From contig CAWGXH010000004.1 of assembly GCA_963826525.1 (NCBI GenBank), forward strand, positions 608,001 through 672,000: a stretch of DNA of 64,000 bases, given 5' to 3'. Below, piece by piece: positions 34,682 to 60,972 of this stretch (its first letter is position 1; every line of letters starts with the position of its first letter). The DNA comes from an uncultured Methanomicrobiaceae archaeon. Its GTDB lineage: Archaea > Halobacteriota > Methanomicrobia > Methanomicrobiales > Methanoculleaceae. The notes under the pieces were generated by a model, which did no database searches, was not told where the DNA came from, and saw only the letters and a list, made by a program, of their open reading frames with translations. Both the position numbers and the translations under genes were made by a program.

Positions 34682-34921
34682 CTCCTAATCCTGAAAGTCC
34701 GTAGATTAGCCCCCACTTTTGGTCAGAACCTGCCCGATACCGGGAGGTGAGGCGGCAGGATCAGGGCATACTTTTCATCCGGTACCGTTATTTCACCCCG
34801 GCAGATACACCGACGAACAGATCGGGCGACCTCTCTGACTGCTTCCGCAGGAGGAGAGCAATTCCTGCCTCGCCACAGCAAACCTTACGTGCAGGGAGTG
34901 TGTAGTTCAGTGTGATCGCCA

Positions 34922-35966
34922 GTGACTACGCCAACCATCTCCCCCCCGGTCAGGCTGCTCCTCATCGGGGCGGGAATCGTCATCGTGTTCGGGGGGGTGC
35001 GGACCGCAACCCCGATCCTCGGCCCGCTGCTCCTCGCCGTCTTCCTCGCTATGGTCACCATCCCGCTGCTGCGCTGGCTCGAAAGGCGGGGGCTGCCCAC
35101 CGCTGCTGCGTTCGGAGTCCTCATCGCAGGACTGGTCGCAGCCTCTCTCGGTCTAGCGGCATTCGTCGGCGCGGCGTTCAACCGAGCTCGTCGAGACGCT
35201 GCCGGTCTATCAGGAGCAGGTGCAGATCCGGATCTCCGATCTGGAGTCGATTCTGGCGGCATCCGGGGTCAACACAGCGTCACTGCAGCTCTACGACCTG
35301 ATCGACCGGGGCGTGATCGTCAGTCAGCTGGCAGCCTTTGTGAGCAGCCTCGGCACCGCCGTATTCGACATCACTCTTATTCTGATAGGAACCGGCTTTC
35401 TACTGCTCGAGGCATCCCGGTTCTCCACCGGGATAGAACGGCGGCTCGGAGCGGACAGCCCGCTGATCGGCCGGTTCCGACAGTCCAGCCGGATTCTCAT
35501 CGACTACATCGTGGTCAGGACGAAGGTCAACCTGATCACCGGGATCGGTGTCGGGGGCTTCCTCTACGCACTTGGGGTGGACTTCGCCCTGCTATGGGGG
35601 CTTCTCACCTTCGTTCTGAGTTATATCCCCTACCTCGGCCTCGCCCTGGCAGCCCTTCCGGCTGTGATCCTGGCATGGCTGGAGCTTGGGCCCCTCGCCG
35701 TGCTGATCATCCTCGTCGGGATCACCATCATCAATTTCATCGCGGAAAATGTCTTTTTCCCACAGATAGCCAGCGAAGGGCTTGACCTCTCACCCTTCAT
35801 CGTCCTGGCATCGGTCATCTTCTGGGGATTCATCCTTGGTGCGGCAGGAGTCTTCCTCGCCGTGCCCCTGACACTCGCCGTGAAGATGCTCCTTGAGAAC
35901 TGGCAGGAAACACGCTGGCTTGCAGTGCTGATGAGCTCGAGTGACCGGCAAGACGAGCAGGCATAG
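34922..35966 (+). CDS. AI-2E family transporter; frameshift near 35184
   Basis: PLLRWLERRGLP, GVDFALLWG...SYIPYLG, LSPFIVLASVIFWG...GVFLAVPLT. Confidence 0.92.
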
Positions 35967-36059
35967 AACGTACATGTTGTACCGGACTGGGCATCCCCAC
36001 GTTCCCCCACCAGCAGCACGCCATAAGACTTTTCTCTCCTTCGCCCAGAGGGGAGGGGC

Positions 36060-36434
36060 ATGTTTGAGCGGATGGGCGGAAGTTCGGGCAGGAACATCGG
36101 GTTTCGAATAAGTGGAATGCTCACCGGAGAGGAGGCGAAGGCGATCCTCGTCCCGGAACTGCACCGAGCTATCGAAGCGTACAGCTACGTTCACCTGCTG
36201 CTGCACCTCGACGGGTTCAAGGGGATGACATCCGGAGCGATAATTGAGGAACTGAAGAACTCCCCCGAAATACAGCAGATCAAGCGCATAGCCATCGTCG
36301 GCGACCCGGGTGCAGGGGAGCTGGCGGCGGTGCAGCTCTTCGGGGCATTCCTCCTCCCCACCGGTACCAGAATCCAGCACTTCCGGAGCGACGCAATCCA
36401 GCAGGCATGGGACTGGCTATACGAAGAGGAGTAG
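36060..36434 (+). CDS. SpoIIAA-like (STAS/SEC14) protein, copy 1
   Basis: IGFRISGMLT, RIAIVGD, AWDWL. Confidence 0.8.
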   Translation: MFERMGGSSGRNIGFRISGMLTGEEAKAILVPELHRAIEAYSYVHLLLHLDGFKGMTSGAIIEELKNSPEIQQIKRIAIVGDPGAGELAAVQLFGAFLLPTGTRIQHFRSDAIQQAWDWLYEEE

Positions 36435-36540: not shown

Positions 36541-36981
36541 ATGCAACCAGCGGGCGAAAGAGGGGCGGATCAGCGGGGAGGGATCGTAGCGGCGATACTC
36601 ATCGTCATCGCCCTTCTTTTTGCTCTTGCCGGCACTGCTGCGGCTCTGGCCGCAATTTCGCCCGGGAACTCTGGAGACGACCGATACGGCGAGGCGCTCC
36701 GTGAACTCGACCAGACACTCATCGAACTCGAGCACCTTGACGAGCGCACCTCAGAGACAGCAGTCCGGGACGCACGGGAGAAGGCCTCTGTCGCCGCCCG
36801 GGCGGTACACGAAGCGGCAGGTGCGGATACCCACGGCCTCGCCGAGGCTTTTGAGGCTCTGGACAGGGCTTTCGCAGCGCTCCCGGAGGATGCTTCAGGG
36901 CCTGAGGCAGCCGGCGCGATCCGTGAGGAGGTGATCGCGCTCAGAGCAGCATGGCACCAGTGCTTCACTCGCCGGGGTTGA
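36541..36981 (+). CDS. Secreted or anchored alpha-helical protein, paralog of 43965
   Basis: Hydrophobic N-terminus; LPEDASGPEA...IREEV..LRAA. Confidence 0.65.
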   Translation: MQPAGERGADQRGGIVAAILIVIALLFALAGTAAALAAISPGNSGDDRYGEALRELDQTLIELEHLDERTSETAVRDAREKASVAARAVHEAAGADTHGLAEAFEALDRAFAALPEDASGPEAAGAIREEVIALRAAWHQCFTRRG

Positions 36982-37080
36982 GCAGGGATCTTCTTCCCAG
37001 GTAGGTTTTTCATACTTCACCGGGTCTGCATGGATTCTGGTACCCATACTATTATGAACTCCCGGCAGGAGTTTGGATAC

Positions 37081-37491
37081 ATGATCGAACTGCTGCACGC
37101 GAGCGTGGGAAACATCATCGGGTATCGGATCAGCGGAATCCTCACCGGGCATGATCTAACCGGGATCCTCATCCCGGATCTTGAGCGGGTGTTCATCGAG
37201 TACGGATCGATCCGGCTGCTCCTCGAGATCAGGGGCTTTCAGGGCGAAGACCCGGACGCAGCCCTGCAGAAGGCGATTCCAGGTGACCTGCCCGGGTCTA
37301 TTGAACGTCTGGCCGTCATCGTCCCGGAAGAGGAGCGTGACGCCTGGACGGGGACGGGGCTGCAGTCCGTCCTCGCATCGGCCGGTGCCGTTGCCCGGTT
37401 CTTCCCGCCCGGACGGCAGGAAGAGGCGTTGGACTGGGTAGCGGCGGGCGGAAAGCATACGACAGAGCTGACATCGACGTTCGGGCGCTGA
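37081..37491 (+). CDS. SpoIIAA-like protein, copy 2
   Basis: IGYRISGILT, IRLLLEI, RLAVI, RFF...EALDWV. Confidence 0.8.
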   Translation: MIELLHASVGNIIGYRISGILTGHDLTGILIPDLERVFIEYGSIRLLLEIRGFQGEDPDAALQKAIPGDLPGSIERLAVIVPEEERDAWTGTGLQSVLASAGAVARFFPPGRQEEALDWVAAGGKHTTELTSTFGR

Positions 37492-37542
37492 TCCACCCGG
37501 GAAAGGAGAACGCTTATCTGTTTTGACTGCGAAAGGGCAACC

Positions 37543-37959
37543 ATGCTTGACCGGATGAAAGAGAGTTCAGGATGCGTGGTCGGGTTTCGGTTCGACGGGA
37601 AACTGAGCGAGAGCGATTACCAGGCAACGCTCCTCCCAGAGCTCGAAAAGGTTCTTGAAACGTGCGATAACGCCAGGATTCTCCTGAAGATCGAGAGGTT
37701 CCACAGCTGGATGCCGGGGGGCTACTGGGAGGAACTGAAGACCTGGCCGGGGATCGCCTCCGTCGACCGGATCGCCATCGTCGGCGGAGAGCAGTGGCGA
37801 GAGTGGATGACTCACCTCCCGGGACTCTTCGTCGGTTTCACCGATATCGACGTTCGGTACTTCCGGGAGAGCCGCCAGGTGGATGCATGGGGCTGGCTCG
37901 GAAGGGACGAGCCTCAGACCGCCCCCCGCGAGACGATGCCGATGCAGGGACGCGGATAA
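37543..37959 (+). CDS. SpoIIAA-like protein, copy 3
   Basis: VGFRFDGKLSESDY, RIAIVG...W, VRYF...AWGWL. Confidence 0.85.
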   Translation: MLDRMKESSGCVVGFRFDGKLSESDYQATLLPELEKVLETCDNARILLKIERFHSWMPGGYWEELKTWPGIASVDRIAIVGGEQWREWMTHLPGLFVGFTDIDVRYFRESRQVDAWGWLGRDEPQTAPRETMPMQGRG

Positions 37960-38022: not shown

Positions 38023-38911
38023 ATGAACTACCGAGCCGATGACGGCGGGTGGATCCGCTTCTCCCGTCCCGAACCGGGGGAGCTCCGCCGTCAGGGCCTG
38101 CTGCCCGTGGATATGCACGTCCACACAAACCATTCGGACTCGCCGACGAGGGTGAGGGATGCCCTCAAACTCGCCGCCCGACAGGGGATCGGGCTCTCCA
38201 TCACCGACCACAACCGGATAAGCGGTGTCCTCGAAGCCCTGCGGCTGGATACCGGCGTTCCGGTCGTCCCCGGGATCGAGGTCAGTGCGGACGACGGGCC
38301 GCATATCCTCCTCTATTTTTCCTCATACGGAGACCTTCGGGAGTTCTATGCCCGGCACATCGAGAGAAATACACGGTCGGCCCCGTATATCGGGATACGG
38401 CTGACTACGGAGGAGATCCTCGACGCCCGGGAGGGCTACCCATGCGTCGTTGCAGAGGCGCACCCGTGCGGATACGTCTTCCTGAACCGGGGGATAGAAC
38501 GGGGTATCAACGGGGAGTGCATCGGCGAAGATCTCTTCTCCCGCCTCGACGCCCTCGAGGTGATCTGCGGCGGGATGGCACGGGCGCATAACCGGAGAGC
38601 GGCGGAGGCTCGCCAATAAACACCAGCTTGGGCGAACAGGAGGAACCGACGGGCACCTCCTGTACGAACTCGGCGGGGTCGTCACCTGCCCCTACGCCGA
38701 GACAACGGAAGAACTCCTGGAGGCTGTCCTCCGACGGGAGACGATCATAATCGGCCAGGAGAAGACGATATTCGGCAAGGCGGTGATGGGGACGGCAGTC
38801 CTGCCACACCACCTCCCGTATACGGTGCCGATCCTCCGGAGCCGGTGGGAGCAGAACCTACCCCGCATCGAGAGGTTCGTGCAGTCCCGGCGTACCAGAA
38901 AAAAAGGATAG
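38023..38911 (+). CDS. PHP-domain phosphoesterase; frameshift near 38608
   Basis: DMHVHTNHSD, ITDHN, PGIEV, EAHP, GGTDGH. Confidence 0.88.
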
Positions 38912-39088: not shown

Positions 39089-40519
39089 TCACCCGAGCGG
39101 GGAGAAGAGTCGGGAGATCGATTCCTTGATCCGGATCCGGGTCGGCCGCTCTGCATAGCGGTCCGGCGTTACCTCGGTGCAGACGGCGAGATCCTCGGTA
39201 AATCGCCGCTTCATCTCGATCCCGACGGCTGAGTCGTAGAAGAAGGCGTTCGCCTCGAAGTTCAGCCGGAAACTGCGGACGTCCCAGTTCGCACTGCCCA
39301 CCGACCCCGCTCTGCCGTCGACCACGATGGTCTTTGCATGGATGAAGCCGTTGTCGTAGGTGTAAACCCGAACTCCCGCATCGAGCAGGTCGGCGGCGAA
39401 GGAGAGGGACGCCCAGTAGACGAAAGGGTGGTCGGGCTTGCAGGGGATCATCAGCCGGACATCGACGCCGGAGAGCGCTGCGAGTCGCAGGGCGTCAGAG
39501 ATGCTCTCGTCGGGGATGAAGTAGGGCGTCTGGACGTAGCAGGACTCCCGGGCGGAGTTGATCAACTTGATGTAGCCCTCTTTGATGGGGTTCCAGCGGG
39601 TGTCAGGGCCCCCGGAGACGATCTGGACCGGGGTGGTGCCGGGCTCTTTAACCTCAGGGAAGTACTGTCCGGTCGCCTCCATCGACTCGTCTGTTGCGAA
39701 ATGCCAGTCCAGGAAAAACCGGAGTTGCAGCAGGCTCACGGCCTGTCCGGTGATCATCACCGCGGTATCCCGCCAGTAACCCATCGGTCCCTTGCCCAGG
39801 TACTCGTCCCCGATGTTGAACCCGCCGATAAAGCCGACAGCGCCGTCGATGACGACTATCTTTCGGTGGTTCCGGTAGTTGAGGCGGTAGATCGAGGGGA
39901 AGAAGACACCGATCTTCCCGCCGGCGTCGGTCAGTTCACGGAAGGCCTCCTTCGACCCCCCGCCGGCCCGGGTTCCCAGGGCATCGAAGAGCAGTCGGAC
40001 CTCGAGACCCTCCCTGGCTTTTCCAGCGAGCGCGTGGACGACTTCCCGCCCGAGCTCGTCGTTGTTCACGATGAAGTATTCGAGATGGATATGGTGGCGG
40101 GCGTTCCCGATCGCTGCAAAAAGTGCATCGAACTTCTCTTTTCCATCGGTATAGAGATCGATGCGATTATTCTCGGTCAGAAACGCCCGGTTGTTCTGGA
40201 GCAGGGCAAAGATGATATCGCGATAGGGTTCCGCATCGGGATTCGAGAACCGGTGTGTCCGGTCGGCCAGATCCAGGTGCTGCTCTTCGAAGATCGCCCT
40301 GAGAATCCGATCGTCCTTCTCCTTGATGGCGAACATCTTCTGCCGCGTGTAGTTCTGTCCGAAGAGCAGGTAGAGCACAAAGCCGATAGGGGGAAGGAAG
40401 AAGAGAACCATCAACCATGCCAGCGCCGCCGTGGGATTTTTCCGCTCGAAGAAGACGACAACAATGGCAAAGAGGATATTGACGAGGACGATGATGCTGA
40501 AGATGAGCGACCAATCCAT
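39089..40519 (-). CDS. cls: Cardiolipin synthase (ClsA-type, two N-terminal TM helices)
   Basis: Two HKD motifs: NHRKIVVIDG...GGFN and HAKTIVVDG...GSAN. Confidence 0.94.
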   Translation of the reverse strand: MDWSLIFSIIVLVNILFAIVVVFFERKNPTAALAWLMVLFFLPPIGFVLYLLFGQNYTRQKMFAIKEKDDRILRAIFEEQHLDLADRTHRFSNPDAEPYRDIIFALLQNNRAFLTENNRIDLYTDGKEKFDALFAAIGNARHHIHLEYFIVNNDELGREVVHALAGKAREGLEVRLLFDALGTRAGGGSKEAFRELTDAGGKIGVFFPSIYRLNYRNHRKIVVIDGAVGFIGGFNIGDEYLGKGPMGYWRDTAVMITGQAVSLLQLRFFLDWHFATDESMEATGQYFPEVKEPGTTPVQIVSGGPDTRWNPIKEGYIKLINSARESCYVQTPYFIPDESISDALRLAALSGVDVRLMIPCKPDHPFVYWASLSFAADLLDAGVRVYTYDNGFIHAKTIVVDGRAGSVGSANWDVRSFRLNFEANAFFYDSAVGIEMKRRFTEDLAVCTEVTPDRYAERPTRIRIKESISRLFSPLG

Positions 40520-40774
40520 ATCGGGAACCTCTCTGCCGTGCCATCTTTTTCCGACACGCGAAAGGGGCATCCTCCGAGCGCCGAACTGCAAATAAAACCT
40601 CTTGTCCTGGTGGTATATAAAATAGGTGTCTCCGGCAGGGGCGGCTCTCCGGGGGCAAGTGAAGAGGGGAATTTATATATCTCAGTGTATGGATTGTGCC
40701 GGTATACTTGCGCATATCTGCCGTGCGTCGACCGGGGGGATGAACCGGTCACGCGGAGGAGCGCAGGAGGTATT

Positions 40775-41296
40775 ATGAGCGATCTTGTTGTCATAGCGTA
40801 TGGTGATGAATCCACGGCCTATACGGTTCGTGATAAACTGGCTGACCTTACCAAGGAGCACGTGATCGAGCTTGAGGACCTGGTCGTTGTCGTCCACCAT
40901 AAGGACGGAAAGACCGAGATAAAACAGAGCACCGACCTGGTCGGCCTCGGGGCGCTCTCCGGCGCTTTCTGGGGCCTGTTGATCGGACTTATCTTCTTCG
41001 TGCCGATCTTCGGTCTGGCGATAGGTGCGATTGCAGGCGCCCTCGGCGGGCGTTTCTCCGACTACGGCATCGATGACAAATTCATCAAGGAAGTGGCCGA
41101 GAATGTCCAGCCCGGGAATTCTGCCGTCTTTCTGCTGATCAAGAAGATGACGCCGGACAAGGTTGTCGACGCCATCAAGGGGTACCACGGCACCGTAATC
41201 CAGACGTCGCTCTCGAGCGAGGAGGAGGAACGTCTCCGCGACGCATTCAGCACCGGGACACCGGCAAAAGCCGAAGTGCCGCCACCCTCTCCGTAG
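40775..41296 (+). CDS. DUF1269-family glycine-zipper membrane protein
   Basis: MSDLVVIAY, GALSGAFWGLLIG, DYGIDDKFIKEV, PGNSAVFLL, TSLS. Confidence 0.9.
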   Translation: MSDLVVIAYGDESTAYTVRDKLADLTKEHVIELEDLVVVVHHKDGKTEIKQSTDLVGLGALSGAFWGLLIGLIFFVPIFGLAIGAIAGALGGRFSDYGIDDKFIKEVAENVQPGNSAVFLLIKKMTPDKVVDAIKGYHGTVIQTSLSSEEEERLRDAFSTGTPAKAEVPPPSP

Positions 41297-41451: not shown

Positions 41452-42078
41452 GTGATGGAGAGTATGCGTGATGTCAGAGTAGCCAGTTTTGAACGCGACG
41501 ATGCGGTGCATGTTGAATTCCGGTTTAAGGCGCTCGATCAACTTCTCGATTCGACAGATCCGTCTCCCCTGCCGGAGCGGGAGCTCACGGAGTTCGCCGA
41601 GGGGTATATCTCCGGGTATCTCAGAGAGTGCAGGCTGCAGAATCTCGCAGGGCTCGTCATCAGCCTCCCACAGAACCAGGTCTCCCCGGAGATGCTGATG
41701 CTCCTCCCCGACACCATCCGCCGGCAGTTCAGGTTTCGGTTAAGCGACCTCGACCACGAGACACGGCTTTCGCTGCGTGAAGGGAAGATAAGCCTAGCGA
41801 TTGCAGTCTTTAATGCCGCCATCGCAGTCCTGTTCGTCAGTGTCTTTGCGAGCTATCTCGAGTCGCTCGTTGTCATCCTCCTGGGCGGCCTGGTCACCAT
41901 CTTAAACTGGGTGACCATCTGGGACACCTACGAGTATTTCGTGTATGACTACCGGCACCTGGTGCACAGACGCAGGATCTATCGGAAGATTCCGACTCTG
42001 GAGATCCGGGTTCTGGGTTGGCCATCCGCCGATAACCCGGAGGAAACAGTTTCTATCGCCGACCGACAGACCGGGTGA
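41452..42078 (+). CDS. Hypothetical two-TM protein
   Basis: DPSPLPEREL soluble N-domain, then two TM helices ending WVTIW..YEY. Confidence 0.7.
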   Translation: MMESMRDVRVASFERDDAVHVEFRFKALDQLLDSTDPSPLPERELTEFAEGYISGYLRECRLQNLAGLVISLPQNQVSPEMLMLLPDTIRRQFRFRLSDLDHETRLSLREGKISLAIAVFNAAIAVLFVSVFASYLESLVVILLGGLVTILNWVTIWDTYEYFVYDYRHLVHRRRIYRKIPTLEIRVLGWPSADNPEETVSIADRQTG

Positions 42079-42398: not shown

Positions 42399-42938
42399 TC
42401 AAAAGATAACCGAAAAGACCCCGAGCGACAGAAGGAGCAGCACGGTCGTGATCAAAATCCAGCCGATCGTGATGAAGAGGAGCGACAGTCTCCGGTCCCA
42501 CTGCAGTATCCAGCCGATGACGGCACTCGAATAGAGGCCGAGGAAAGGCACTGCCGGGAGGACAATGAGGGTTGCGGCACCGAATTTCGACAGAATCGTC
42601 ATCTTCTCCATCTTCTTTTCAGTGCGCTCAAGGAGGTCCCGGACACGCTCCGATGTCAGGGCAAAGGCATCGCAGATATAAAAGATGGCGAGCACCATGC
42701 CGATCTCCACGAGCGTCATGATAACGAGCACCACCAGGGGGGCGAGCCCCATGCCCAATCCGACAAAAGCGGCATTTGCCTGGAGAATGATCGTGGACGA
42801 GACCAGACTGAGCACCCGCCCGAACGAGATGCCGAGTGCAGAACCAAGGATCAGCGGAAGGAGCGTGGTAAAGAGAAAGGCGACCGCCAGCGCCTTTGCA
42901 GCCTGGCGCAACCAGGTGATCACTCTCGAGAGGTTCAT
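42399..42938 (-). CDS. Small multidrug-export-like membrane protein
   Basis: Hydrophobic; KFGAATLIVLPAVPFLGLY. Confidence 0.6.
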   Translation of the reverse strand: MNLSRVITWLRQAAKALAVAFLFTTLLPLILGSALGISFGRVLSLVSSTIILQANAAFVGLGMGLAPLVVLVIMTLVEIGMVLAIFYICDAFALTSERVRDLLERTEKKMEKMTILSKFGAATLIVLPAVPFLGLYSSAVIGWILQWDRRLSLLFITIGWILITTVLLLLSLGVFSVIF

Positions 42939-46475: not shown

Positions 46476-46561
46476 ATGGTGCGCCGAAACCATGATGGCT
46501 TCGGAGGGCGGTGAAGGGATCGTCATACACCACACGTTACACCACACGTGCGGAGTTTTCT

Positions 46562-51645: not shown

Positions 51646-52070
51646 GAGGGGACCGACGGAATCAAAGGGAGAATGGGTGGTCAGTCCCGGAAACAGGACT
51701 CCTGCCATCGTATTCCCCTTCCGACCAACCGGTTCCTGGATTCCCGGTCATGGCGTCAACCATGAGCACTCCGAGGAAGATACCGAAGGAGAGAGATACA
51801 TCCGAACATCCGGAAGACTGGCAGACCCGAATGAAAGAGAGCCGTTCATCCATTTAATATAACCACATATTTATAATAAAATCTTTATATCATCCGATCC
51901 ACAGTAGGCCGAGCCCGCCTCCTGCATGCATACACCCGAAGAAGTCGACGGAGATTGCTGATCGACGCCTTCGGGGCTCTTGGTGCCGCTTCTTATAACG
52001 GCAGTATAAGCGTAGTATACGGCTGGAGCGGGCCATCTGAGAACAGATTCAGTAAAGGGGGAATAAAGAA

Positions 52071-52628: not shown

Positions 52629-52866
52629 AGCGATGCCGAGATTGGCCCACTCTCATTTTTTATTCGGGGTGTTCGCCTCCTGAACACGAATCCTTGATCG
52701 TTCAGGATACCACTGTTCCTAGCCTCTTCAGGAACCCGCCATAATTGACGTGCCGCTCTCCGGTATGAGCGTGAATGGAACCAGGCAACCGGCGGCATCT
52801 GCTCGAAAAGCTCATTTAAACCATCTGCGTGTTACAGCCCCTGCCCCCACAGGGGAGGGAAGTAGT

Positions 52867-53319
52867 ATGGCAGAGCAAGGCAGAGTCATGGGCCCTGTTG
52901 ATTACCTGATCGTCAGGTTTCCGGGGAACAAGTTCAGCGGTGAGATCATCCCCGAGCTTGCCAACCTGGTACAGAGCGGCATCATCCGGGTTATCGATCT
53001 CGTCTTCACCATGAGGGACGAGACAGGGCAGTTGGTGAAGGTTGAGGCGAAGGACCTGCAGGGAGAGATGGGCAATGCCTACAGGGAACTGGCGCGGCAC
53101 ACCGACGAATGGTTCTCCGAGGGCGACATCGAGGTCCTCACGGAGGGGCTGGCGAAGAACAGCTCGGCCGCACTCCTGCTCTTCGAGAACGTCTGGGCCA
53201 TCCGGTTCAAGGAAGCATTGATGAATGCGGATGCCGAGCTGATCGACATGGGCAGGATCCCGCCGGAGACGATTGAAAAGGCAGAGAAGAAGATCATCAA
53301 GGTTGAGCGAGGTGTTTGA
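52867..53319 (+). CDS. DUF6325-like protein
   Basis: MGPVDYLIVRFPG..FSGE, IRVIDL, SSAALLLFENVWA, GRIP. Confidence 0.82.
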   Translation: MAEQGRVMGPVDYLIVRFPGNKFSGEIIPELANLVQSGIIRVIDLVFTMRDETGQLVKVEAKDLQGEMGNAYRELARHTDEWFSEGDIEVLTEGLAKNSSAALLLFENVWAIRFKEALMNADAELIDMGRIPPETIEKAEKKIIKVERGV

Positions 53320-53558
53320 AGATGCGAGGAAGAGGGCTGATGCTTGTTGCGGGGCATAGGATGGGCAAGCAACAGGCGCAGCGGCAGATGGCACAGGCGG
53401 AAGAATCCAAGCAGCAGGGGGCGCAGGAGGCCGCACAGGCAGCAGCGCCGCCCACGGACGATGTCATCGCGCAGATCGAGAAGCTCTCCGCACTGCATGA
53501 GTCTGGAGCCCTGACCGACGAGGAATTCGCCGCCGCCAAGAAGAAGCTTCTGGGCTGA
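53316..53558 (+). CDS. SHOCT-domain protein
   Basis: QIEKLSALHESGALTDEEFAAAKKKLLG. Confidence 0.88.
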   Translation: MKMRGRGLMLVAGHRMGKQQAQRQMAQAEESKQQGAQEAAQAAAPPTDDVIAQIEKLSALHESGALTDEEFAAAKKKLLG

Positions 53559-53899
53559 TCCCATCAATTTTCTTTCATACTGTATCAATCGCTCGAATCA
53601 CCGAAGAGCCCTGAAATTGTTCCATGTGCCTGTCCTCTACGCGGGGGCCGGGAGTCCGCAGGCAATGCCTTTTCGATGGAGATTAGTGGCAGCCAGTGCT
53701 TCTGCGCCATATGTGAAAAAAGGAAAGAGACAGACGTGGTCCGCGAGGTCGCGGCCATTGCTCTTTATTCCTAGAAACTTTAATCGACCCTCCGTATCGG
53801 CGGGCACTCCCACGTAGCATCCACGACTTCCTGGTGCGGGACACACAGGCGCAGAATGGGGAACCATGCGCCGCTGCCTGCGGAGCCGCAGCTGCCTTC

Positions 53900-54404
53900 G
53901 CTTCGAGGCCGTTCACGAGCTCGAGCCGCGCCGGGACCCGTGCCGATGCGCTTCAGCTCGCCGGCAGTCAGAATCTGGGCGCCTGCATTCCGGATACCGT
54001 CCTCGATCTTTCCAGCGAACTGCGGGTCGACGAAGAGGCCGACGGCCACCGCGCCGGGGTTGAGAGTATCCCCCAGGTGGGCCGCCTTGACGTTCAGCTC
54101 CGCTGGGCTGCCCGGCGGTTTGCCGGCGACGGCGGGCAGGCCGGTCTTCATGCTGCGCTCGCCGGACGGGCACACCTTTGTCATGCAGACGTATACGAAC
54201 CACGTCGACCGCGCCCTGACCGAGGCGGATCTCCCAAACCTGGCCCAGCGGCTGAAGCTGGGGGAGGGGTGGCAGTTCAAGGCGAAGACCCTCGACCGGA
54301 ACCTGATCATCGATACAACCGGCCTGGCTCGCATCGTCGCCGACGACCTGGCGAACATGTACCAAGGCTGTATCGACAACGTCTGTACCTTTGGCCCCTG
54401 GTAA
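53900..54404. pseudogene. Two back-to-back 5'-truncated gene fragments (minus ~53900-54110; plus ~54135-54404)
   Basis: Minus: ELNVKAAHLGDTLNPGAVAVGLFVDP... with high GC3. Plus: RPVFMLRSPDGHTFVMQTY...DDLANMYQ. Neither has a convincing start or RBS. Confidence 0.5.
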
Positions 54405-54531
54405 TCGGGGCCTACTATCCACAAGAGAGATCCCGAGGAATATTTTTAAATCAACGGTAAGATATCGGGGAACGTGGAATCAGATCAGCGGTTGAACGGC
54501 TTCCGCCCACCGGGGCAGGTGGAGTGGTGAG

Positions 54532-55441
54532 ATGGTAGAGACCGTGTCATTTCTGGACTTCCTCGGGACGATCGGCGTTCTTGCGGCAGTGATCTTTGTA
54601 ATCTCCAGTATGCTCGCCATGGGATTCTCCCTGACCGTACAACAGATCATCGAACCGCTGAAGAATATACGGCTGGTGATCCTCTCCCTAATTGCGAACT
54701 TTGTCCTGGTACCGCTGCTCACGCTGGTTCTCCTGACGATCTTTCCGCTCTCCGAAGGACTCTCTATCGGTCTGTTCGTCCTCGGGACTGCCGCGGGAGC
54801 CCCGTTCCTGCCGAAACTCGCGCAGGTGGCGAAGGGAGATATCGCCTTTGCCGTGGGGCTGATGGTGCTCCTGATGGTGGTGACGATCGCCTACGTGCCG
54901 ATCGTCCTGCCGCTGCTCCTTTCCGGTGTCACGATCGATCCCTGGGCGATCGCCCAATCACTCATCCTGCTGATGCTCGTCCCACTCGCCGTCGCCCTGT
55001 TCATCCGGGCCCGGTACAAAGAGTGTGGCGGCGGGCCTCCTGCCTCTGATGAACCAGGCGACGAGTCTCTCACTTCTCGTGTTGTTCGTGGCCTTCTTCG
55101 TGGTCTACTTCACGGACCTGCTGGGCATGATCGGCACCACCGCAGTCCTCACAACGATCATCTTCGTGGTGGTCTCGCTTGTCATCGGCTACCTCCTCGG
55201 CGGTCCGGGCGGCGGCACAAAAAGGGTGCTCGCCGTCGGGACGGCGCAGCGCAACCTCTCGGCAGCGCTGGCGATTGCCGCCCTTAACTTCACCGACCCG
55301 GACGTCATGGTCATGATCCTGGTGGTCGGGCTGGTGGGTCTCGTGATATTGATGTTCGTCGGCGGGGAGATGGGCAAGCGGGCGGAGGCGCCGTCTACGG
55401 CCGCTCCAGAGGAGAAGCCCAAGAAGGCACCACAGGGATAA
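54532..55441 (+). CDS. Bile acid:sodium symporter (BASS) family; frameshift near 55024
   Basis: SMLAMG, ANFVLVP, AAGAPFLPKL, GTAQRN. Confidence 0.9.
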
Positions 55442-55657
55442 GGAGCGGAGAGAAGAGGCATTTTTTCTGCACCGCCAGGGGGGAGACGATCGAGGGAAGA
55501 ATGCCGGAAGCGCCAGCCGAAAGGAGGGCACACGTCACCGAGAACATCCTGCCGCTGCGCGATCGGCCTGTGGATCTCCCCCCTGGGAGCTGCAGTATAT
55601 TTATGTGGACCGGACGCCACGCTTCAGCAGTTATAGGAATCAGATGGAGGAACCTTC

Positions 55658-56344
55658 ATGCGCATTGGACGCCGCACGAGCCTGATCATAGTCATAGTGC
55701 TGATCGGCGCCATCACCGTCCTCTACGCCCTCGACCTGGCGGAGAGCAGATCGGAAGTGACGGAGCTTGCACCTGCAGAGGTGCGGGAGTACCAGGGGGA
55801 GCAGCTCTCCTCGATTGCGGATTTTCGTGAGAACTCGATTCATGGCCCGCAGTACGTGAATGCGAGCACCTACACGCTCACCATTGACGGACAGGTGGCG
55901 AGCAGAAAGGTATACTCCTACGATGCGCTCCTGGAGCGGTTCCCTCACTACCGCAAGGTTGTTACCCTCTACTGCGTGGAAGGCTGGGATGTCACCATCC
56001 TCTGGGAGGGGATAAGAGTTAAGGATCTCCTGCAGGAGGCGGGGGTGGAGCCGGGGGCGAGTACGGTCATATTCTACGCAGAGGACGGCTACTCCTCTTC
56101 ACTTCCCCTTGCCTACATCGAAGACCGGGACATCCTGCTGGCCTATGCCATGAACAACGTCACCCTGCCAGCGGAGCGGGGATTCCCCTTCCAGCTGGTG
56201 GCCGAGGACCGCTGGGGCTATAAGTGGGTGAAATGGGTAACCAGGATCGAGGTATCCGACGATGAGAACTACCGCGGCTACTGGGAGAGCCGGGGGTATG
56301 CAAACAACGGGAGCATTGACCGATCCTTCTTTGATCGGGGATAG
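55658..56344 (+). CDS. Sulfite-oxidase/MsrP-like molybdopterin oxidoreductase
   Basis: N-terminal RR plus TM helix, LYCVEGW (Mo-ligand Cys), RGFPFQLV...WGYKWVKWV, GYWESRGY. Confidence 0.9.
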   Translation: MRIGRRTSLIIVIVLIGAITVLYALDLAESRSEVTELAPAEVREYQGEQLSSIADFRENSIHGPQYVNASTYTLTIDGQVASRKVYSYDALLERFPHYRKVVTLYCVEGWDVTILWEGIRVKDLLQEAGVEPGASTVIFYAEDGYSSSLPLAYIEDRDILLAYAMNNVTLPAERGFPFQLVAEDRWGYKWVKWVTRIEVSDDENYRGYWESRGYANNGSIDRSFFDRG

Positions 56345-56357
56345 GGAGGGAACAAGG

Positions 56358-56585
56358 ATGGTGCGGTTCACCTATCGGAAACTGGTCTCCTGGACCCTCC
56401 TCGCATTTACGCTCCTCTTCCTGATCAGCGGCTTCGGGATCACGGAACCACGGCTGGTGCAGCCCCTGACGTTTGGGCTTCTCGATAAGGCGCTCTCCCA
56501 GCAGATCCACTTTCTTCTCTGGGGCCCATTCCTGATCGTGCTGGTGCTACACGTATACTACAACTGCGGCATCTTCAGGAAGTGA
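56358..56585 (+). CDS. 75-aa two-TM protein with H-x13-H helix
   Basis: MVRFTYRK...LISGFG...QIHFLLWGPFLIVLVLHVY; GGAGG upstream. Confidence 0.7.
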   Translation: MVRFTYRKLVSWTLLAFTLLFLISGFGITEPRLVQPLTFGLLDKALSQQIHFLLWGPFLIVLVLHVYYNCGIFRK

Positions 56586-56946
56586 TGCTGGATGATGTTC
56601 GTCGACAGGGAGTCGGGAAGCGGGCGAAGGTGCCGTCGGCGGCTACCCGTGAGAAGAAGTCCATTACTTCCGAAAAATGAAAAGCGAGGAGTCCGGGTCT
56701 GATACCCGGCGTTCCGGTTGCCGCCGTCGTCATCGTTTCGGTCGGCGTTACCGTCAGTGTCGTCTCGGTGGTCATCGTTTCGGTCGGCGTTACCGTCAGT
56801 GTCGTCTCGGTGGTCATCGTTTCAGACGGTGTCGTTTCGGTCGGCGTTGCCGTCGGTGTCGCGTTCCCCGCCGGCGAAACACACCCTGCCACCAGGACCG
56901 CCGCTGCCATGAACAGCAGGATCAGCAGGATCAGTTTTTTCAACAT
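56575..56946 (-). CDS. Small Thr-rich lipoprotein (3' end uncertain)
   Basis: MLKK + hydrophobic stretch + VAGC lipobox, then TPTET repeats. Confidence 0.7.
   Translation of the reverse strand: MLKKLILLILLFMAAAVLVAGCVSPAGNATPTATPTETTPSETMTTETTLTVTPTETMTTETTLTVTPTETMTTAATGTPGIRPGLLAFHFSEVMDFFSRVAADGTFARFPTPCRRTSSSITS
56729..56823. repeat. Perfect 42-bp tandem repeat, ~2.3 copies
   Basis: GTCATCGTTTCGGTCGGCGTTACCGTCAGTGTCGTCTCGGTG at 56729 and 56771, partial copy at 56813. Confidence 0.92.
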
Positions 56947-57351
56947 CGATAAGCCCCCCTTGGTTCGGGCATGAAGAGATTCAACATTCAATCTACGATA
57001 TAAAATTAACGGAATATGTTGGTGCCCGTGAAAGGCCTTCTCCCGGCCCATGCGCCTATTTTCCTCCCCCGGAGGAGGAACTGCCAGATCTCCTGCAGTT
57101 GATTCGGCGGTGTTCGAGACTGCAGCCCTCAACCACGCCGACCACGGCAGTATGGTCATAGTCCATGTGGGTCGTGCGTTCAAGGTCATCACCGGCAGGC
57201 AACCGTTACTGCCGGAAGATACCTGCCAATCAAAACGGATGGCCATTATCTGGAAAGTATTATTAAAACCGGATCCTATGACTTGACTAGTTGCGGCAGG
57301 GGAACGGCGATGTCATCGCACATACCGCGTCACAACCTATGGAGCAGGAAT

Positions 57352-57801
57352 ATGTTTCGCATGGGAGCCCCAAGGACCGCACGGAGAACTTCCCACCGGA
57401 CATCGCGCCGTGTCATGCGCCGCACCACACAGCGAACCGTTCTGGTCGGCGGGACCGCCGCCGCGATCAAACTCTCGCAGAATGACGTCGACCAGATCGA
57501 GCAGCACACCGGCAAGGAGGCCGAAGACCTCTCCGAGCAGGAGCTCGACAAGGCAATGGACGATCAGGGCATCAAGGAGCAGGAGCTGACCGACCAGGAC
57601 GTGACCGCAATCGAGGCCGGTATGGCGAAAGAACAGGCTCCGCAGCCTGACGTAGCGCCCCCGGCAGCCCCTCCGCCCGAGGCTGTGCCTGCCGAACCGT
57701 CCTACATCGGCGAACTGGAGAAACTTGCCGGGTTTCGGGATAAAGGGATCATCACCGAGGAAGAGTTCCAGGCCAAGAAGAAGCAGCCCCTGGGATTGTA
57801 G
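57352..57801 (+). CDS. SHOCT-domain protein with Arg-rich N-terminus
   Basis: ELEKLAGFRDKGIITEEEFQAKKK; N-terminal RTARRTSHRTSRRVMRR. Confidence 0.82.
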   Translation: MFRMGAPRTARRTSHRTSRRVMRRTTQRTVLVGGTAAAIKLSQNDVDQIEQHTGKEAEDLSEQELDKAMDDQGIKEQELTDQDVTAIEAGMAKEQAPQPDVAPPAAPPPEAVPAEPSYIGELEKLAGFRDKGIITEEEFQAKKKQPLGL

Positions 57802-57864
57802 ATCCGGAGATTCTGGCATGGACAAACCTCACTCAACAACAACCGTATCTCCTGCGAGAGGGAG

Positions 57865-58911
57865 GTGACCATGCCCGCTCCGTCCCGCCTCGCATCCCTC
57901 ACCCGGGTTGTCATCATCAGTACCGTCGTCGTCACCGGCATGTACCTCGGCGCCGCGGTCGTGAGCCCGGTGCTCGTCGGGTTCATTCTGGCGATCGTTG
58001 TCACACCAATTGTGCATCGCCTGGAAGAGCGCGGATTGCCCCGGCTCGCTGCGGTGCTGGCGATGGTCGGGGTGATCGTCGGCGTTGCCCTGCTGCTCAT
58101 CGCCGTCTTCAGCCTGTCGCTGATCGAGCTCGACAGCGCCCTGCCCGCCTACCAGGATCTGCTACAGGCGCAGCTGGCGGCACTGCAGGCATGGCTTGCG
58201 GACCTCGGGATCATGACCTCTCTCCAGCTGCCCGATGCATCTTCGGGGCCTGTGCTCATCCCCTCGCTCGGGGAGATCCTCGCCGGACTCTCCATTCTGG
58301 TCGTCGATTTTCTGGTCATCCTGATCGTGGCCGTCTTCATGCTCCTCGAGGTGACCTCGATCCGGGGAAAACTCCAGAAGAGCCTCGGGCTCGACGTTGA
58401 GGCCGAACTCGACCGTTCCGCGAACAATCTGGTCGCATACGCGGCGCTCCGCACCAGAAGCGGCCTTGCGACCGGCATCGTTATCGCGATTCTCCTGCTG
58501 CTCCTCGGGATCGACGCCCCGGCGCTCTGGGCGGTCCTCATCGTCGTGCTCGGCTACATACCCTACTTCGGGCTGCCCATAGCATCGGTGCCCCCTATCG
58601 GGCTTGCCTGGCTCCAGCACGGCCTCCCTGGAGCGCTCGCCGTCGCGGTCGGCATCTTCGTCGTCGACCTTCTCGCTCGCCGCTTCCTCCTGCCGTACCC
58701 CGCCGAACAGGCGCTCCGAATCTCCCCACTGGCGATCGTCCTCTCGGTCCTCGCCTGGACGCTGGTGCTCGGCGTTCCGGGGCTTTTTCTAGGTGCTCCC
58801 CTGACTCTGCTCATAAAGGCGGTGCTGTCGAGTTCGGAAGAGACTGGGTGGCTGGCGATACTGATGGAGCCGTCCAATGATAGCGAAAGTACCGGAGAAC
58901 TGTCCAGGTGA
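57865..58911 (+). CDS. AI-2E family transporter, copy 2
   Basis: RLEERGLPR, GYIPYFG, ISPLAIVLSVLAW...GLFLGAPLT. Confidence 0.9.
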   Translation: MTMPAPSRLASLTRVVIISTVVVTGMYLGAAVVSPVLVGFILAIVVTPIVHRLEERGLPRLAAVLAMVGVIVGVALLLIAVFSLSLIELDSALPAYQDLLQAQLAALQAWLADLGIMTSLQLPDASSGPVLIPSLGEILAGLSILVVDFLVILIVAVFMLLEVTSIRGKLQKSLGLDVEAELDRSANNLVAYAALRTRSGLATGIVIAILLLLLGIDAPALWAVLIVVLGYIPYFGLPIASVPPIGLAWLQHGLPGALAVAVGIFVVDLLARRFLLPYPAEQALRISPLAIVLSVLAWTLVLGVPGLFLGAPLTLLIKAVLSSSEETGWLAILMEPSNDSESTGELSR

Positions 58912-59049
58912 CCGATAGGCCGCACGCTCTCCCCAAAAATATAATATATTGGCAATAGTAATGCAGTCAACCGAAATCTGCGATCGAACCCAAAAATATC
59001 CAATAGATATCGTCTATGAGGTGATTGGACTGCTGATGGAGCGAACCTG

Positions 59050-60972
59050 ATGCATGCCCGAGCCGGGTGGCCGGTGCGGGAACCGGGAAGCCGGAACGGT
59101 CGAGCCCGTGCAGTAGGGAAAACGCTCTTCCTGGCTCTCCTGCTCGGCGTACTGGTGGGCACGGGGGCCGCCCAGATGCAGGACAATACCGGTGTCCAGG
59201 AGCTGACCGGGCGAATAGAACCCGGTCAGGCGATCGTGTACGATCTCCCTGGTTTGCAGGCGGGAGAGAACCTGGACGCCTATGCAGAGGGAACCTCAGG
59301 AGATCTTGACCCGTTCCTCGCCGTAGCGAACCCGGATCTCAACGCGAGCCGGGTGCGTACCGAGTTCGCAGCCGACGTGAACCGCTCCCTGGCAGCGGGG
59401 CAGGACCCACTCAGGGTGATCCCGGAGACTGCCGGCCGGTACTTCCTCGCCTGGAACGACGATACGAACGGCACCTATAACGCCGCCCTGCAGTACCGCA
59501 TTCCCGCCGACGGCGACTATCTCCTGATCGTAATCGGCTCTCCGGCAGAACGAGGGCGGACCTTCGGGGATTACCGTCTCCTGGTCGGAATCGACGACCC
59601 GCAGGTGCTGACCGGCCAGGCCGAGCCGACCGGAGCCACCATTGCGATCCTGAATACCTCCGTTTCGAAGATGCGCGTCGGTGTCCAGGAGGTGACGGGG
59701 AACCTCTCCGCCAATACCTCATCGACCTTCTACATCTTGAGCCCGGTAGAGAAGAACGACACCTTCTACGCCTCCATCGAAGCGACATCCGGGAACCTGA
59801 TCCCGGCGATGGTCCTGCGGGACTACGGCGGCAAGCCCCTCGCAGCGGTGGCTACTGAAACGGGGAAGACCAGCGCCACGCTCCAGTACACCTTCGCCGG
59901 CACCAGCAGCAACGATCGGCTGGAGGTGCTCTCAAGCCCGCTGGACGGGACCAACACGACAGGAGACTTCCGCCTGCTGACCGGTTTGAACGCCCCCGGC
60001 GTGCTGGCGGGCAACGAGTCGCCCGGCGGCATCGCCGTCCTGCAGGCGCCCATCCCGGTCAAAGTCGGCGTCGAATTGGACCAGATCACCGGCGTGGACC
60101 AGGTCAGCGAGAACTTCGCCGTGGTGGCCAACATCTGGATGCAGTGGAACGACCCTGCCCTGGCATTCAGCCCGGACGAATGCGACTGCCGGGTCAAGAT
60201 CTACCGGAGCATCGACGATTTTGTCACGGCCGAGGGTTCACGGTGGCCGGAGTTTACGCTCTACAACCAGCAGGCGCAGCGCTGGACGCAGAACCAGATC
60301 ATCGTGGTGGAGCCCAACGGCACCGCCACCTACTATGAACACTTCTGGACAACCCTGCAGGCGCCGGAATTCAATTTCAGGGCCTACCCGTTCGATACCC
60401 AGGAGTTCTTCATCCGCATCGACTCGCTCTATCCCGAAGAATTGTATGTCTACGAGCCCTGGCCGGAGAAGACCGCCGTCGGCACCCAGCTAGGGGAGGA
60501 GGAGTGGTACATCACCTCGAGCGATACCAACATCAGCACGGTCGAGATCACGACCCAGAACTCCCGCTACTCATTCGACTTCTTCGCAGCCCGCCATCTC
60601 ACCTACTACCTCCTCCGCATCCTGCTGCCCATCTTTATCATCATCCTCCTGACCTACATCACGTTCCTCCTCAAAGACTACGGGAAGCGCGCTGAGATAG
60701 CCAGCGCCAATCTGCTCCTCTTCATCGCGTTCAACTTCACCATCGCCGGAAACCTGCCGCACCTTGGCTACCTGACCTTCCTGGACTCCATTCTGATCGC
60801 CACCTTCGTCATCACCGGCGCTACGGTGGCCTACAACCTCTACCTGAGATGGCTGGCGACTGCGGCGGAGAAAGAGATCGCCGAACGGATCGACCGGGTG
60901 ATAGTCTGGCTCTACCCGTTGGCGTACATCACCGCGCTCATTTTTGGCCTGTTTGTAGAAGGGTTCTTCTGA
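59050..60972 (+). CDS. Pentameric ligand-gated ion channel with two tandem N-terminal beta domains (DeCLIC-like)
   Basis: Signal peptide, duplicated N-domains, W.DP.L, Pro-loop FRAYPFDTQ, GEEEW, pre-M1 RHLTYYLLRILLP, M2-M3 LPHLGYLTFLD, four TM helices. Confidence 0.92.
   Translation: MHARAGWPVREPGSRNGRARAVGKTLFLALLLGVLVGTGAAQMQDNTGVQELTGRIEPGQAIVYDLPGLQAGENLDAYAEGTSGDLDPFLAVANPDLNASRVRTEFAADVNRSLAAGQDPLRVIPETAGRYFLAWNDDTNGTYNAALQYRIPADGDYLLIVIGSPAERGRTFGDYRLLVGIDDPQVLTGQAEPTGATIAILNTSVSKMRVGVQEVTGNLSANTSSTFYILSPVEKNDTFYASIEATSGNLIPAMVLRDYGGKPLAAVATETGKTSATLQYTFAGTSSNDRLEVLSSPLDGTNTTGDFRLLTGLNAPGVLAGNESPGGIAVLQAPIPVKVGVELDQITGVDQVSENFAVVANIWMQWNDPALAFSPDECDCRVKIYRSIDDFVTAEGSRWPEFTLYNQQAQRWTQNQIIVVEPNGTATYYEHFWTTLQAPEFNFRAYPFDTQEFFIRIDSLYPEELYVYEPWPEKTAVGTQLGEEEWYITSSDTNISTVEITTQNSRYSFDFFAARHLTYYLLRILLPIFIIILLTYITFLLKDYGKRAEIASANLLLFIAFNFTIAGNLPHLGYLTFLDSILIATFVITGATVAYNLYLRWLATAAEKEIAERIDRVIVWLYPLAYITALIFGLFVEGFF

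Follow-up and report, generated by a model that had tools for sequence, protein, structure and literature searches.

A sulfatase-centred gene cohort at a probably mosaic site of a Methanomicrobiales methanogen

Loci that pair a sulfatase with its maturase are well known from gut and soil bacteria, the AtsA/AtsB and ChuR types being examples. No described sulfatase locus with LURP, DUF1269b, DUF308, AI-2E or PF06695 partners was found in the literature searched, which also held no paper on a sulfatase or anSME role in methanogens by title or abstract. Here, we describe a stretch of about 26 kb with some 30 genes that contains such a combination in an uncultured archaeon of the Methanomicrobiaceae. 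The stretch lies between a 5S rRNA/tRNA gene pair and the signal recognition particle (SRP) RNA/mdh block of a window of 64,000 nucleotides, i.e., the whole of the DNA analysed (G000:C4:608001-672000, where G000 is the window's own genome; G and L numbers denote genomes and loci). The initial annotation had read the entire stretch as one horizontally shared envelope system. The sulfatase-centred cohort within it is real and, within the literature searched, undescribed. The stretch as a whole is probably a mosaic of small modules at one insertion-prone site, among them the sulfatase cohort with a proposed organosulfate role. Coordinates refer to the window and to its plus strand unless stated otherwise.

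Other products of the stretch have described relatives as well. One study presents DUF1269 as a ferredoxin-like domain in which a glycine zipper is embedded, and places DUF1269 proteins near ccyA in Microcystis (10.1101/2024.07.07.602159), whereas the DUF1269 genes considered here stand in an archaeal setting. DUF6325 was absent from the literature searched, in which DUF1269 was present. SHOCT-like domains are predicted to tether proteins to the inner membrane face (PMC11237479), and a further report gives a negative result for a test of SHOCT oligomerisation (PMC3581485).

Recurrence of the sulfatase cohort

The sulfatase gene (47493-49844; about 783 aa; Pfam PF00884, 2.4e-65) carries two apparent frameshifts. 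Its product combines the PF00884 fold with the Cys-type motif CxPxR, present as CSPTR at residue 79 of the window's own translation, and its nearest solved structures are those of AtsA (PDB 1HDH and 4CXK; E 1e-73 to 1e-75). AtsA, the arylsulfatase of Pseudomonas aeruginosa (1HDH), is likewise of Cys type, whereas the archaeal protein is extended by a C-terminal domain of about 190 aa and lacks an export signal: inspection of sequence and hydropathy revealed neither a signal peptide nor a transmembrane (TM) segment. Its scores stay below the NCBIfam equivalog cut-offs for arylsulfatase (113 against 481 bits) and choline sulfatase (68 against 433 bits). The enzyme resembles cytoplasmic AtsA. As in the bacterial loci, the anSME gene is adjacent (45182-46475; Pfam; apparent frameshift near 45668). 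The intact orthologue in G001, a genome of the same genus (87-88% identical), scores 503 bits against the equivalog cut-off of 349 (TIGR03942), and the window's own protein retains CxxxCxxC as CNLDCAYC, with 13 cysteines in its C-terminal part (radical-SAM/SPASM). Further features set the locus apart from the bacterial examples: its host is a methanogen, and its anSME ends in a SEC-C zinc-binding motif (46359-46475; PF02810, 1.2e-10). To our knowledge, characterised anSMEs are not known to have such an ending.

The further members of the cohort in the window are genes for a PF06695 membrane protein of the 'small multidrug export' type (42399-42938, minus strand; Pfam), a DUF308/HdeD-like membrane protein (43236-43739; PF03729), a LURP-one-related protein (LURP; 51100-51645; PF04525) and DUF1269b, a soluble protein of the DUF1269/DUF6325 type (52071-52628; Pfam and alignments), together with AI-2E transporters. 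Recurrence from the sulfatase anchor was assessed in 301 evenly drawn genomes of the phylum. All 39 other positive genomes contributed one locus each, with flanks of about 6 kb unless the contig ended earlier. The sulfatase is patchy, being present in 40 of the 301 genomes and 17 of 101 genera. At the 39 loci anSME is the commonest neighbour (26), followed by DUF1269-superfamily (14), DUF308 (13), AI-2E (10), LURP (9) and PF06695 (9) genes. BASS transporter genes occur at 5 loci, K+ channel, pentameric ligand-gated ion channel (pLGIC) and SHOCT genes at 2 each, STAS and Cls genes at 1 each, and PHP and MsrP genes at 0. With the same hidden Markov models (HMMs), the 3.06 Mb of G000 hold 1 LURP, 3 AI-2E, 3 PF06695-like, 5 DUF308 and about 6 DUF1269-superfamily genes; from these copy numbers, less than one chance occurrence per family is expected over the 39 loci.

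The reverse anchor was DUF1269b. A 10-sequence alignment (A1) was searched against one genome per GTDB species, the best 80 of 448 confirmed stretches giving 76 loci, and neighbour families were captured by local HMMs built by iteration on the open reading frames (ORFs) of all loci. The 34 Methanomicrobiaceae-type loci contain LURP (20), DUF308 (16), sulfatase (15), anSME (12), PF06695 (11) and orfH (11) genes, then DUF5518 (6), BASS (5), SHOCT (5), K+ channel (4), Cls (3), STAS (3), AI-2E (3), pLGIC (2), PHP (1) and MsrP (1). At 13 Methanoregulaceae loci the counts are DUF308 7, sulfatase 5, anSME 5, orf41452 5, SHOCT 4 and LURP 0, and the 3 Methanosarcinales loci have sulfatase (3), anSME (2) and AI-2E (2) genes. 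Adjacent pairs, at most 1.2 kb apart and counted over the anchor loci and the relatives' loci (L009 and L026 being the same DNA), are led by LURP/DUF1269-superfamily (24) and DUF1269-superfamily/SHOCT (20, in 7 taxon groups), followed by sulfatase/anSME (14), DUF1269-superfamily/sulfatase (10, including 2 Actinomycetota and 3 Methanosarcinales), DUF308/orfH (10), orfH/DUF5518 (8) and Cls/PHP (6).

The families also co-occur at the level of whole genomes. Among the 301 genomes, LURP is found in 23, a gene of the DUF1269b type (E<=1e-25) in 16 and the sulfatase in 40; sulfatase and LURP overlap in 16, sulfatase and DUF1269b in 13, LURP and DUF1269b in 14, and all three in 11. Fisher tests of the overlaps give p values of 6e-11 to 2e-16, in a sample in which related genomes are not independent, and 8, 6 and 5 of the overlaps fall outside the window's own order. 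In genomes that encode both members of a pair, LURP and a sulfatase gene are at most 8 kb apart in 14 of 16, DUF1269b and the sulfatase at most 10 kb in 10 of 13, and DUF1269b and LURP at most 5 kb in 8 of 14. Thus, part of the stretch recurs elsewhere far above base rates: a cohort of sulfatase, anSME, LURP, DUF1269b, DUF308, AI-2E and PF06695 genes recurs above the base rate from either anchor. The full set of some 30 genes is not a conserved cohort in unrelated genomes; Cls, PHP, STAS, MsrPQ-like and pLGIC genes are lineage-specific neighbours only. The cross-phylum comparison of neighbourhoods and co-occurrence that the initial annotation had proposed hence comes out in favour of sulfatase, maturase, LURP, DUF1269/DUF6325-type, DUF308, AI-2E and PF06695 genes, weakly of BASS and SHOCT, and not of the rest.

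The inheritance of the sulfatase differs from the taxonomy of its hosts. In a quick IQ-TREE analysis of 66 rows with SH-aLRT support, two well-supported clades occur within the window's own family and the tree is discordant with taxonomy. Clade 1 contains the type of G001, G018 and G011, to which the window's gene is 94% identical; clade 2 unites the type of G016, G009 and G010 with families f2, f4, f5 and f10 and a Methanotrichaceae sequence. Both Actinomycetota sulfatases (L080 and L083) nest inside archaeal clades with a support of 97. This fits a patchy, transferable inheritance of the sulfatase module, and the nesting of the Actinomycetota sequences suggests inter-domain transfer of the sulfatase.

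Beyond methanogens, 268 chosen ORFs within 6 kb of the anchor were Pfam-scanned at 22 loci. L083 (Actinomycetota) encodes an FGE-sulfatase protein, a 783-aa sulfatase and a DUF1269b-type protein, with an Ion_trans_2 channel two ORFs on; here the non-homologous FGE maturase replaces anSME. L080 (Actinomycetota) contains SulP, NhaP, sulfatase, DUF1269b-type, AI-2E and bestrophin-like genes. In Chloroflexota, L054 and L087 carry DUF1269, LURP and DUF1269b-type genes, with gaps from LURP to DUF1269b of 52 and 2 nt, and L087 (Chloroflexia) adds a DUF6325-SHOCT pair and a SpoIIAA-like gene. An ion channel or ion transporter gene lies within 6 kb at 12 of the 22 loci. The statement of the initial annotation that such clusters occur in unrelated bacteria holds in part: SHOCT adjoins the anchor at 9 of 16 bacterial loci, whereas a sulfatase gene is present at 2 and BASS at 0. 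A separate observation concerns arginine deiminase genes, which are present at four of the five Chloroflexota loci (L054, L061, L074 and L087); there, DUF1269b-type or DUF6325-SHOCT genes stand beside the arginine deiminase pathway and DcuC or Na+/H+ antiporter genes.

Architecture of the site

The host genome encodes McrA, which marks it as a methanogen, and EF-1beta at window 63388-63741 (Pfam) marks the DNA as archaeal. The assembly has 3.06 Mb in 16 contigs and is 87.6% complete with 5.3% contamination. On the left, the site is bordered by a 5S rRNA gene (34182-34304, minus strand; Rfam RF00001, 87 bits), of which blastn against the own genome finds two more copies, 99% identical, on the same contig (G000:C4:452313-452444 and C4:1433011-1433142), and by a tRNA gene with CAT anticodon (34606-34682) that ARAGORN called Met(CAT). 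Its acceptor and anticodon stems are those of tRNA-Ile(GAT) from the same genome and differ from those of the two further CAT tRNAs; given these common stems, the tRNA-Ile2 identity proposed initially is plausible. On the right follow the SRP RNA gene (62070-62380; RF01857, 184 bits) and mdh (to 63345; Ldh_1_N and Ldh_1_C). A 132-bp repeat (34176-34308) that had come into question as an attachment site was ruled out as such, being the 5S rRNA gene itself.

A Pfam scan of 146 ORFs of at least 75 aa between 32.4 and 64 kb located all families named in the initial annotation where it had placed them: two AI-2E, three SpoIIAA-like, three DUF1269/DUF6325 and two SHOCT proteins. The singletons Cls, PHP, HdeD, LURP, K+ channel, BASS, sulfatase with maturase and pLGIC were found as well, and the MsrP-like enzyme falls below the MsrP cut-off. 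In total, the stretch holds 27 confident genes and 2 doubtful ORFs; the genes for Cls, the PF06695 protein and a HEAT_PBS protein are on the minus strand. A/T-rich TATA-like boxes were recognised by eye upstream of at least 13 genes. With three genes on the opposite strand and these putative internal promoters, the 26 kb do not appear to form a single operon or transcription unit. Like tRNA-borne genomic islands, the stretch directly follows a tRNA gene and differs in content among close relatives. In contrast to such islands, the tRNA-proximal part (block A, see below) is the conserved one. Moreover, GC content is even across the stretch (0.57-0.63), no integrase, transposase or recombinase was matched by Pfam among the 146 ORFs, and none of the repeat families listed is a flanking direct repeat; on these grounds, a tRNA-integrated island was rejected. 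Horizontal sharing, as first proposed, is supported in part: the patchy distribution and discordant tree speak for it in the case of the sulfatase, whereas the stretch as a whole lacks integrase, transposase and GC shift. Similarly divided are the origins, the sulfatase tree conflicting with taxonomy whereas block A is vertical within the family.

Comparison with close relatives separates a conserved frame from variable content. G001 is collinear with window 1-46469 and 56696-64000. It keeps the AI-2E/STAS/PHP/Cls/DUF1269 and the SHOCT/AI-2E/pLGIC/mdh blocks at the site, whereas the position of the sulfatase block, between anSME and SHOCT2, is taken by MscS, TMEM175, DUF1269b and a further DUF1269 gene. 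The sulfatase, HEAT and LURP genes of G001 and two K+ channel genes are found on a different contig (L014). The genomes G014, G016 and G018 of genus g6 share the order AI-2E_a, DUF1269a, orf41452, STAS, PHP, Cls, STAS and then the mdh block, and in several other genomes of g6 hardly any DNA separates the matches to Cls/STAS3 from those to the mdh block. PHP-Cls neighbours the mdh block in G001, G014, G016 and G018, PHP adjoins Cls in 6 loci, and SHOCT2/AI-2E_b is collinear in G001, G016 and G018. Synteny in the g6 genomes thus identifies block A and mdh as a family-level arrangement and the space between them as the place where additions accumulate.

We propose that the stretch is a mosaic that would have grown, in a Methanomicrobiales methanogen, at a single insertion-prone chromosomal site flanked by 5S rRNA/tRNA-Ile2 and by SRP RNA/mdh. 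Block A, probably inherited vertically with the mdh block in the family, would comprise AI-2E_a (34922-35966; PF01594 in two frames, apparent frameshift near 35183, intact 347-aa orthologue in G001), three SpoIIAA-like or STAS-like proteins (36060-36434, 37030-37491 and 37543-37959; PF11964), a lipoprotein-like helical protein (36541-36981; sequence and hydropathy), a PHP-domain metallophosphoesterase (38023-38911; PF02811, apparent frameshift near 38608, intact 295-aa G001 orthologue), Cls, the membrane-type DUF1269a (40763-41296; PF06897, 2.4e-39; orthologues; start codon uncertain) and orf41452 (41452-42078). Separate, mostly self-promoted modules would have been inserted into or beside it. 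Module B would be the patchy sulfatase cohort with its signs of transfer (sulfatase, anSME, LURP, DUF1269b, DUF308, AI-2E and the small PF06695 protein) and module C the DUF6325-SHOCT pair (52750-53319, probable start 52867, PF19850; and 53316-53558, probable start 53322, Pfam). Module D would consist of the BASS/SBF transporter (from 54532; Pfam; apparent frameshift near 55030) with the MsrPQ-like pair and be common with a second G000 locus by recent duplication or recombination. Module E would join SHOCT2 (57283-57801; Pfam), AI-2E_b (57865-58911; Pfam) and a DeCLIC-type channel (59050-60972). Only modules B and C behave as units outside the lineage.

The second G000 locus is on contig C3. 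Positions 53782-56588 of the window are made up, patchwork-like, of segments that match G000:C3:502-509 kb with nucleotide identities of 81-97%, the BASS/MsrP-like part having 89-95% identity to G000:C3:502.6-504.5 kb, and in the C3 copy the MsrPQ genes lie between N-terminal and C-terminal BASS fragments. The surroundings of this copy (G000:C3:490800-510400; L012 and L013) form a second cluster, with BASS, DUF6325-SHOCT, methyltransferase, hemerythrin, acyltransferase, flavodoxin, TMEM175, CLC, MsrPQ-like (98% amino acid identity to the window copy), MBL-fold, DUF1214/DUF1254 and DUF1269b genes.

Apparent frameshifts number seven in six genes when judged against intact orthologues (AI-2E_a, PHP, anSME, K+ channel, sulfatase twice, and BASS). 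Compared with G001, 10 of the 30 genes matched in window 1-34000 switch frame, as do 3 of the 13 matched in the region studied; being spread over the whole window, the switches point to assembly indels and not local decay. Pseudogene decay of the region was rejected, since frame switches are equally common among the window's core genes. The assembly thus appears indel-prone, and the genes are best treated as intact. Window-wide, about a third of matched genes switch frame, which together with the completeness of 87.6% suggests the same; ORF-based annotation of G000 will split many genes.

DUF1269-type proteins and neighbouring genes

DUF1269b and DUF6325 belong to one superfamily, with matches to PF06897 and PF19850. 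In alignment A1 they align over the whole core with 21 invariant columns, and a gap covers the hairpin in the three DUF6325 rows, so that DUF6325 corresponds to the DUF1269b core minus its glycine-zipper segment. In DUF1269a this hairpin is hydrophobic. The structural model of DUF1269b (pLDDT 86) has the order b-a-b-b, a helical hairpin at residues 64-100 and then a-b-a. With regard to the PII, CutA1, NikR-C and ACT-like ferredoxin-fold signal proteins, a Foldseek search with the model gave no match at E<=1e-3, and VIA-align reached a best Z of 3.2, with NikR and ACT-like rows at 2.5-2.9. A DUF6325 gene is followed by one for a SHOCT-tailed microprotein on the same strand, with a gap of at most 60 nt, in 19 loci; in the window the gap is 3 nt if the ATG at 53322 is used. 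A complex prediction for DUF6325 and its SHOCT partner (score 0.01, mark 0.32) counts neither way. HdeD-like genes and ion channel genes lie near DUF6325-SHOCT and DUF1269 genes.

Upstream of DUF1269b (window 51886-52070) there is a conserved TATA box about 170 nt before the gene and a leader of about 150 nt with conserved blocks and local hairpins, kept in the own C3 paralogue (L013:945-1135), in other own paralogues and in 25 related loci. RNAalifold on 23 sequences gave 0 pairs, Rfam gave nothing at gathering score, and the single-sequence folding z-scores of 8 sequences range from -2.9 to +0.9. Two more DUF1269b paralogues (G000:C4:331622-331768 and G000:C13:1391-1540) keep only the last 45-50 LURP codons upstream; the duplications therefore carried the LURP 3' end along with DUF1269b.

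Cls (39089-40591, minus strand) is a cardiolipin synthase by TIGR04265 (556 bits against a cut-off of 290), with PLDc in two stretches. An archaeal cardiolipin synthase, MhCls of Methanospirillum hungatei, is described in PMC8141893. Set beside MhCls by description only, the window's enzyme is likewise of PLD type with two N-terminal TM segments and from the same methanogen order, whereas its tie to the cohort is of a lineage-specific kind. DeCLIC, as presented in PMC9897478, is a Ca2+-modulated pLGIC of a Desulfofustis deltaproteobacterium (PDB 6V4A). The pLGIC of the window, with an N-terminal domain of about 300 aa, matches 6V4A at E 7e-127 over residues 31-632 of 640, including this domain, and is of DeCLIC type. 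In contrast to DeCLIC it is archaeal. Such channels are encoded in the archaeal genomes G000, G001, G010, G016, G018 and G024, most often immediately following an AI-2E gene (5 loci), and with 2 of 39 sulfatase loci the channel is a loose member of the cohort. The Mo enzyme of module D (55658-56344; Pfam, molybdopterin oxidoreductase) resembles MsrPQ (YedYZ), a periplasmic methionine sulfoxide reductase, in its Oxidored_molyb domain, in its Tat-like N-terminus and in that a small membrane protein, weakly similar to cytochrome b561/DUF4405, is encoded next to it (MsrQ-like; to 56585; Pfam). At 59 bits against a cut-off of 207, and with sulfite dehydrogenase models (SorA and SoxC) scoring like the MsrP model, the enzyme appears only MsrP-like; it is 228 aa long, with a partner of only about 75-107 aa.

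The Kv-like K+ channel (46511-47396; Pfam Ion_trans_2; apparent frameshift near 47030; intact 290-aa orthologues) has a TVGYGD filter and an S4-like segment. The product of orf41452 (208 aa, a soluble N-terminal part and two TM segments) has no Pfam or NCBIfam match and only unannotated clusters as atlas matches; the gene recurs at other loci, adjoining DUF308 and DUF1269-type genes. The two proteins initially called helical secreted, at 36541-36981 and 43965-44453 (orfH; hydropathy), are paralogues with an N-terminal hydrophobic segment. A DUF5518 membrane protein is encoded at 44723-45103 (Pfam), and the HEAT_PBS repeat protein (49987-50826, minus strand; Pfam) lies between sulfatase and LURP also on contig C5 of G001. 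Between the MsrQ-like gene and SHOCT2, a 42-nt repeat occurs three times in tandem (56717-56857), overlain by doubtful, family-less ORFs, one frame of which is arginine-rich. Between pLGIC and SRP RNA lies a conserved 402-aa ORF (60849-62057) with Cys-x-x-Cys pairs and a DACCGAG stretch, which we take to resemble a SAM-binding motif. The ORF has no match in Pfam or NCBIfam and is overlapped by a 303-aa ORF on the opposite strand.

Explanations for the stretch and their meaning

For module B, a pathway can be proposed in which an organosulfate ester would be taken up (candidates are BASS, AI-2E and the PF06695 protein) and cleaved by hydrolysis in the cytoplasm, with sulfate, a proton and an alcohol or phenol as products. 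HdeD-like, K+ channel and AI-2E proteins, and elsewhere SulP and a Na+/H+ exchanger, may then handle the anion, proton and ion load. The weakest step assigns LURP and DUF1269b a part as accessory binding or regulatory proteins; the ferredoxin-like core with its glycine-zipper hairpin and, for the paralogue that lacks the hairpin, the SHOCT partner would recruit these proteins to the membrane. A sharper version holds LURP and DUF1269b to be dedicated partners of a cytoplasmic organosulfate pathway shared by transfer between methanogens and some Actinomycetota, either as a sensor/regulator pair or as a membrane dock that couples cleavage to ion and proton handling; we regard this version as tentative and rather unlikely. 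The mosaic with its sulfatase cohort, which we consider probable, has several points to contend with. Gene order is fluid and promoters separate most pairs, an arrangement equally in keeping with loose co-selection and with a mechanism. DUF1269-superfamily genes are absent from 25 and LURP from 30 of the 39 sulfatase loci, so that the accessory role may be optional or indirect. Kinship of the genomes makes the Fisher values overstate the association, and the family counts rest on local HMMs with mostly archaeal training sequences and on ORFs instead of curated gene calls. The fold of DUF1269b could be tied to no known family (best Z 3.2). Finally, a shared operator did not emerge: in a crude test of 200 nt upstream with uncertain start codons, no exact 8-mer reached a share of at least 20% of the sequences of a family in more than 2 of 13 families.

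The last result bears equally on the idea that the stretch is a stress regulon neighbourhood, in which genes for osmotic, ionic, acid and oxidative envelope homeostasis are united by regulation, the sulfatase is interchangeable cargo and DUF1269/DUF6325 (with SHOCT) is a general membrane-proximal stress or regulatory element. Clustering of the neighbours of DUF1269b without preset families (76 loci) does return MFS (11), P-type cation ATPase (10, in 4 taxon groups), DUF169 (9), SulP (7), UPF0114 (7), NhaP (6), DUF2252 (6), TMEM175 (5), PPK2 (5), LAL regulators (5), CLC (4) and Usp (4), of which MFS, the ATPase, SulP, NhaP, TMEM175, CLC and Usp would suit such a regulon. So would TMEM175, CLC, BASS and MsrPQ at the own C3 locus, MscS and TMEM175 at the homologous site of G001, and the ion channels, transporters and arginine deiminase genes of the non-methanogen loci. 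Yet transporters are common genes and these counts come without a general base rate, and the regulon would not account for the specific association, across domains, of the DUF1269b type with a single sulfatase orthologue group and the maturase of that group. On balance we hold this explanation to be unlikely, though worth keeping in mind. Another alternative supposes no functional link at all, but synteny by descent together with genes that accumulated by chance where stable RNA genes border a recombination-prone site. The family-level synteny of block A and mdh, the recent patchwork with C3 at 53782-56588 and the non-independence of relatives fit such an account. However, sulfatase, LURP, DUF1269b, DUF308 and AI-2E genes associate in varied order and orientation in families f1-f4, f7, f10, f13 and f15, the association reappears at two Actinomycetota loci with a non-homologous maturase, and LURP is tightly followed by DUF1269b in Chloroflexota. 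We thus regard it as quite improbable.

Less probable still is the original proposal of a single, horizontally shared envelope system made up of all the roughly 30 genes, which would sense and process a compound of amphiphilic and perhaps sulfated nature and would remodel lipids and ion flux. The best case for it is L016 (G024, of another family), which packs 12 families into 19 kb in another order, with Cls, BASS, DUF1269b, orfH, LURP, sulfatase, DUF6325-SHOCT, HEAT, anSME, DUF5518, pLGIC, orf41452 and PF06695 genes; the Chloroflexia locus L087, which combines LURP, DUF1269, DUF6325-SHOCT and a SpoIIAA-like gene, points the same way. Nevertheless, the proposal loses support where the set is followed through other genomes: Cls and STAS accompany the sulfatase at 1 locus each, pLGIC and K+ channel at 2 each and PHP and MsrP at none of the 39, the 34 DUF1269b-anchored loci are little richer (Cls 3, STAS 3, pLGIC 2, PHP 1 and MsrP 1), and G001 splits the set over two contigs, in addition to the many separate promoters and the lack of mobility genes and of a GC shift. 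For annotation, this is a caution that long co-oriented runs of membrane genes are not to be read as one system.

For the probable mosaic and its sulfatase cohort, the link between the sulfatase group, LURP and the DUF1269 type gives families of unknown function a concrete, testable context. It holds from either anchor, and the link of sulfatase and DUF1269 type also holds with FGE instead of anSME in an aerobe. Cultured carriers are available among the DUF1269b-anchor loci, which include records of Methanoculleus frigidifontis and M. formosensis. If the sharper version, with LURP and DUF1269b as dedicated partners of the pathway, is true, it would provide a first function for the DUF1269/DUF6325/SHOCT superfamily and for prokaryotic LURP, and point to organosulfate use in methanogens.

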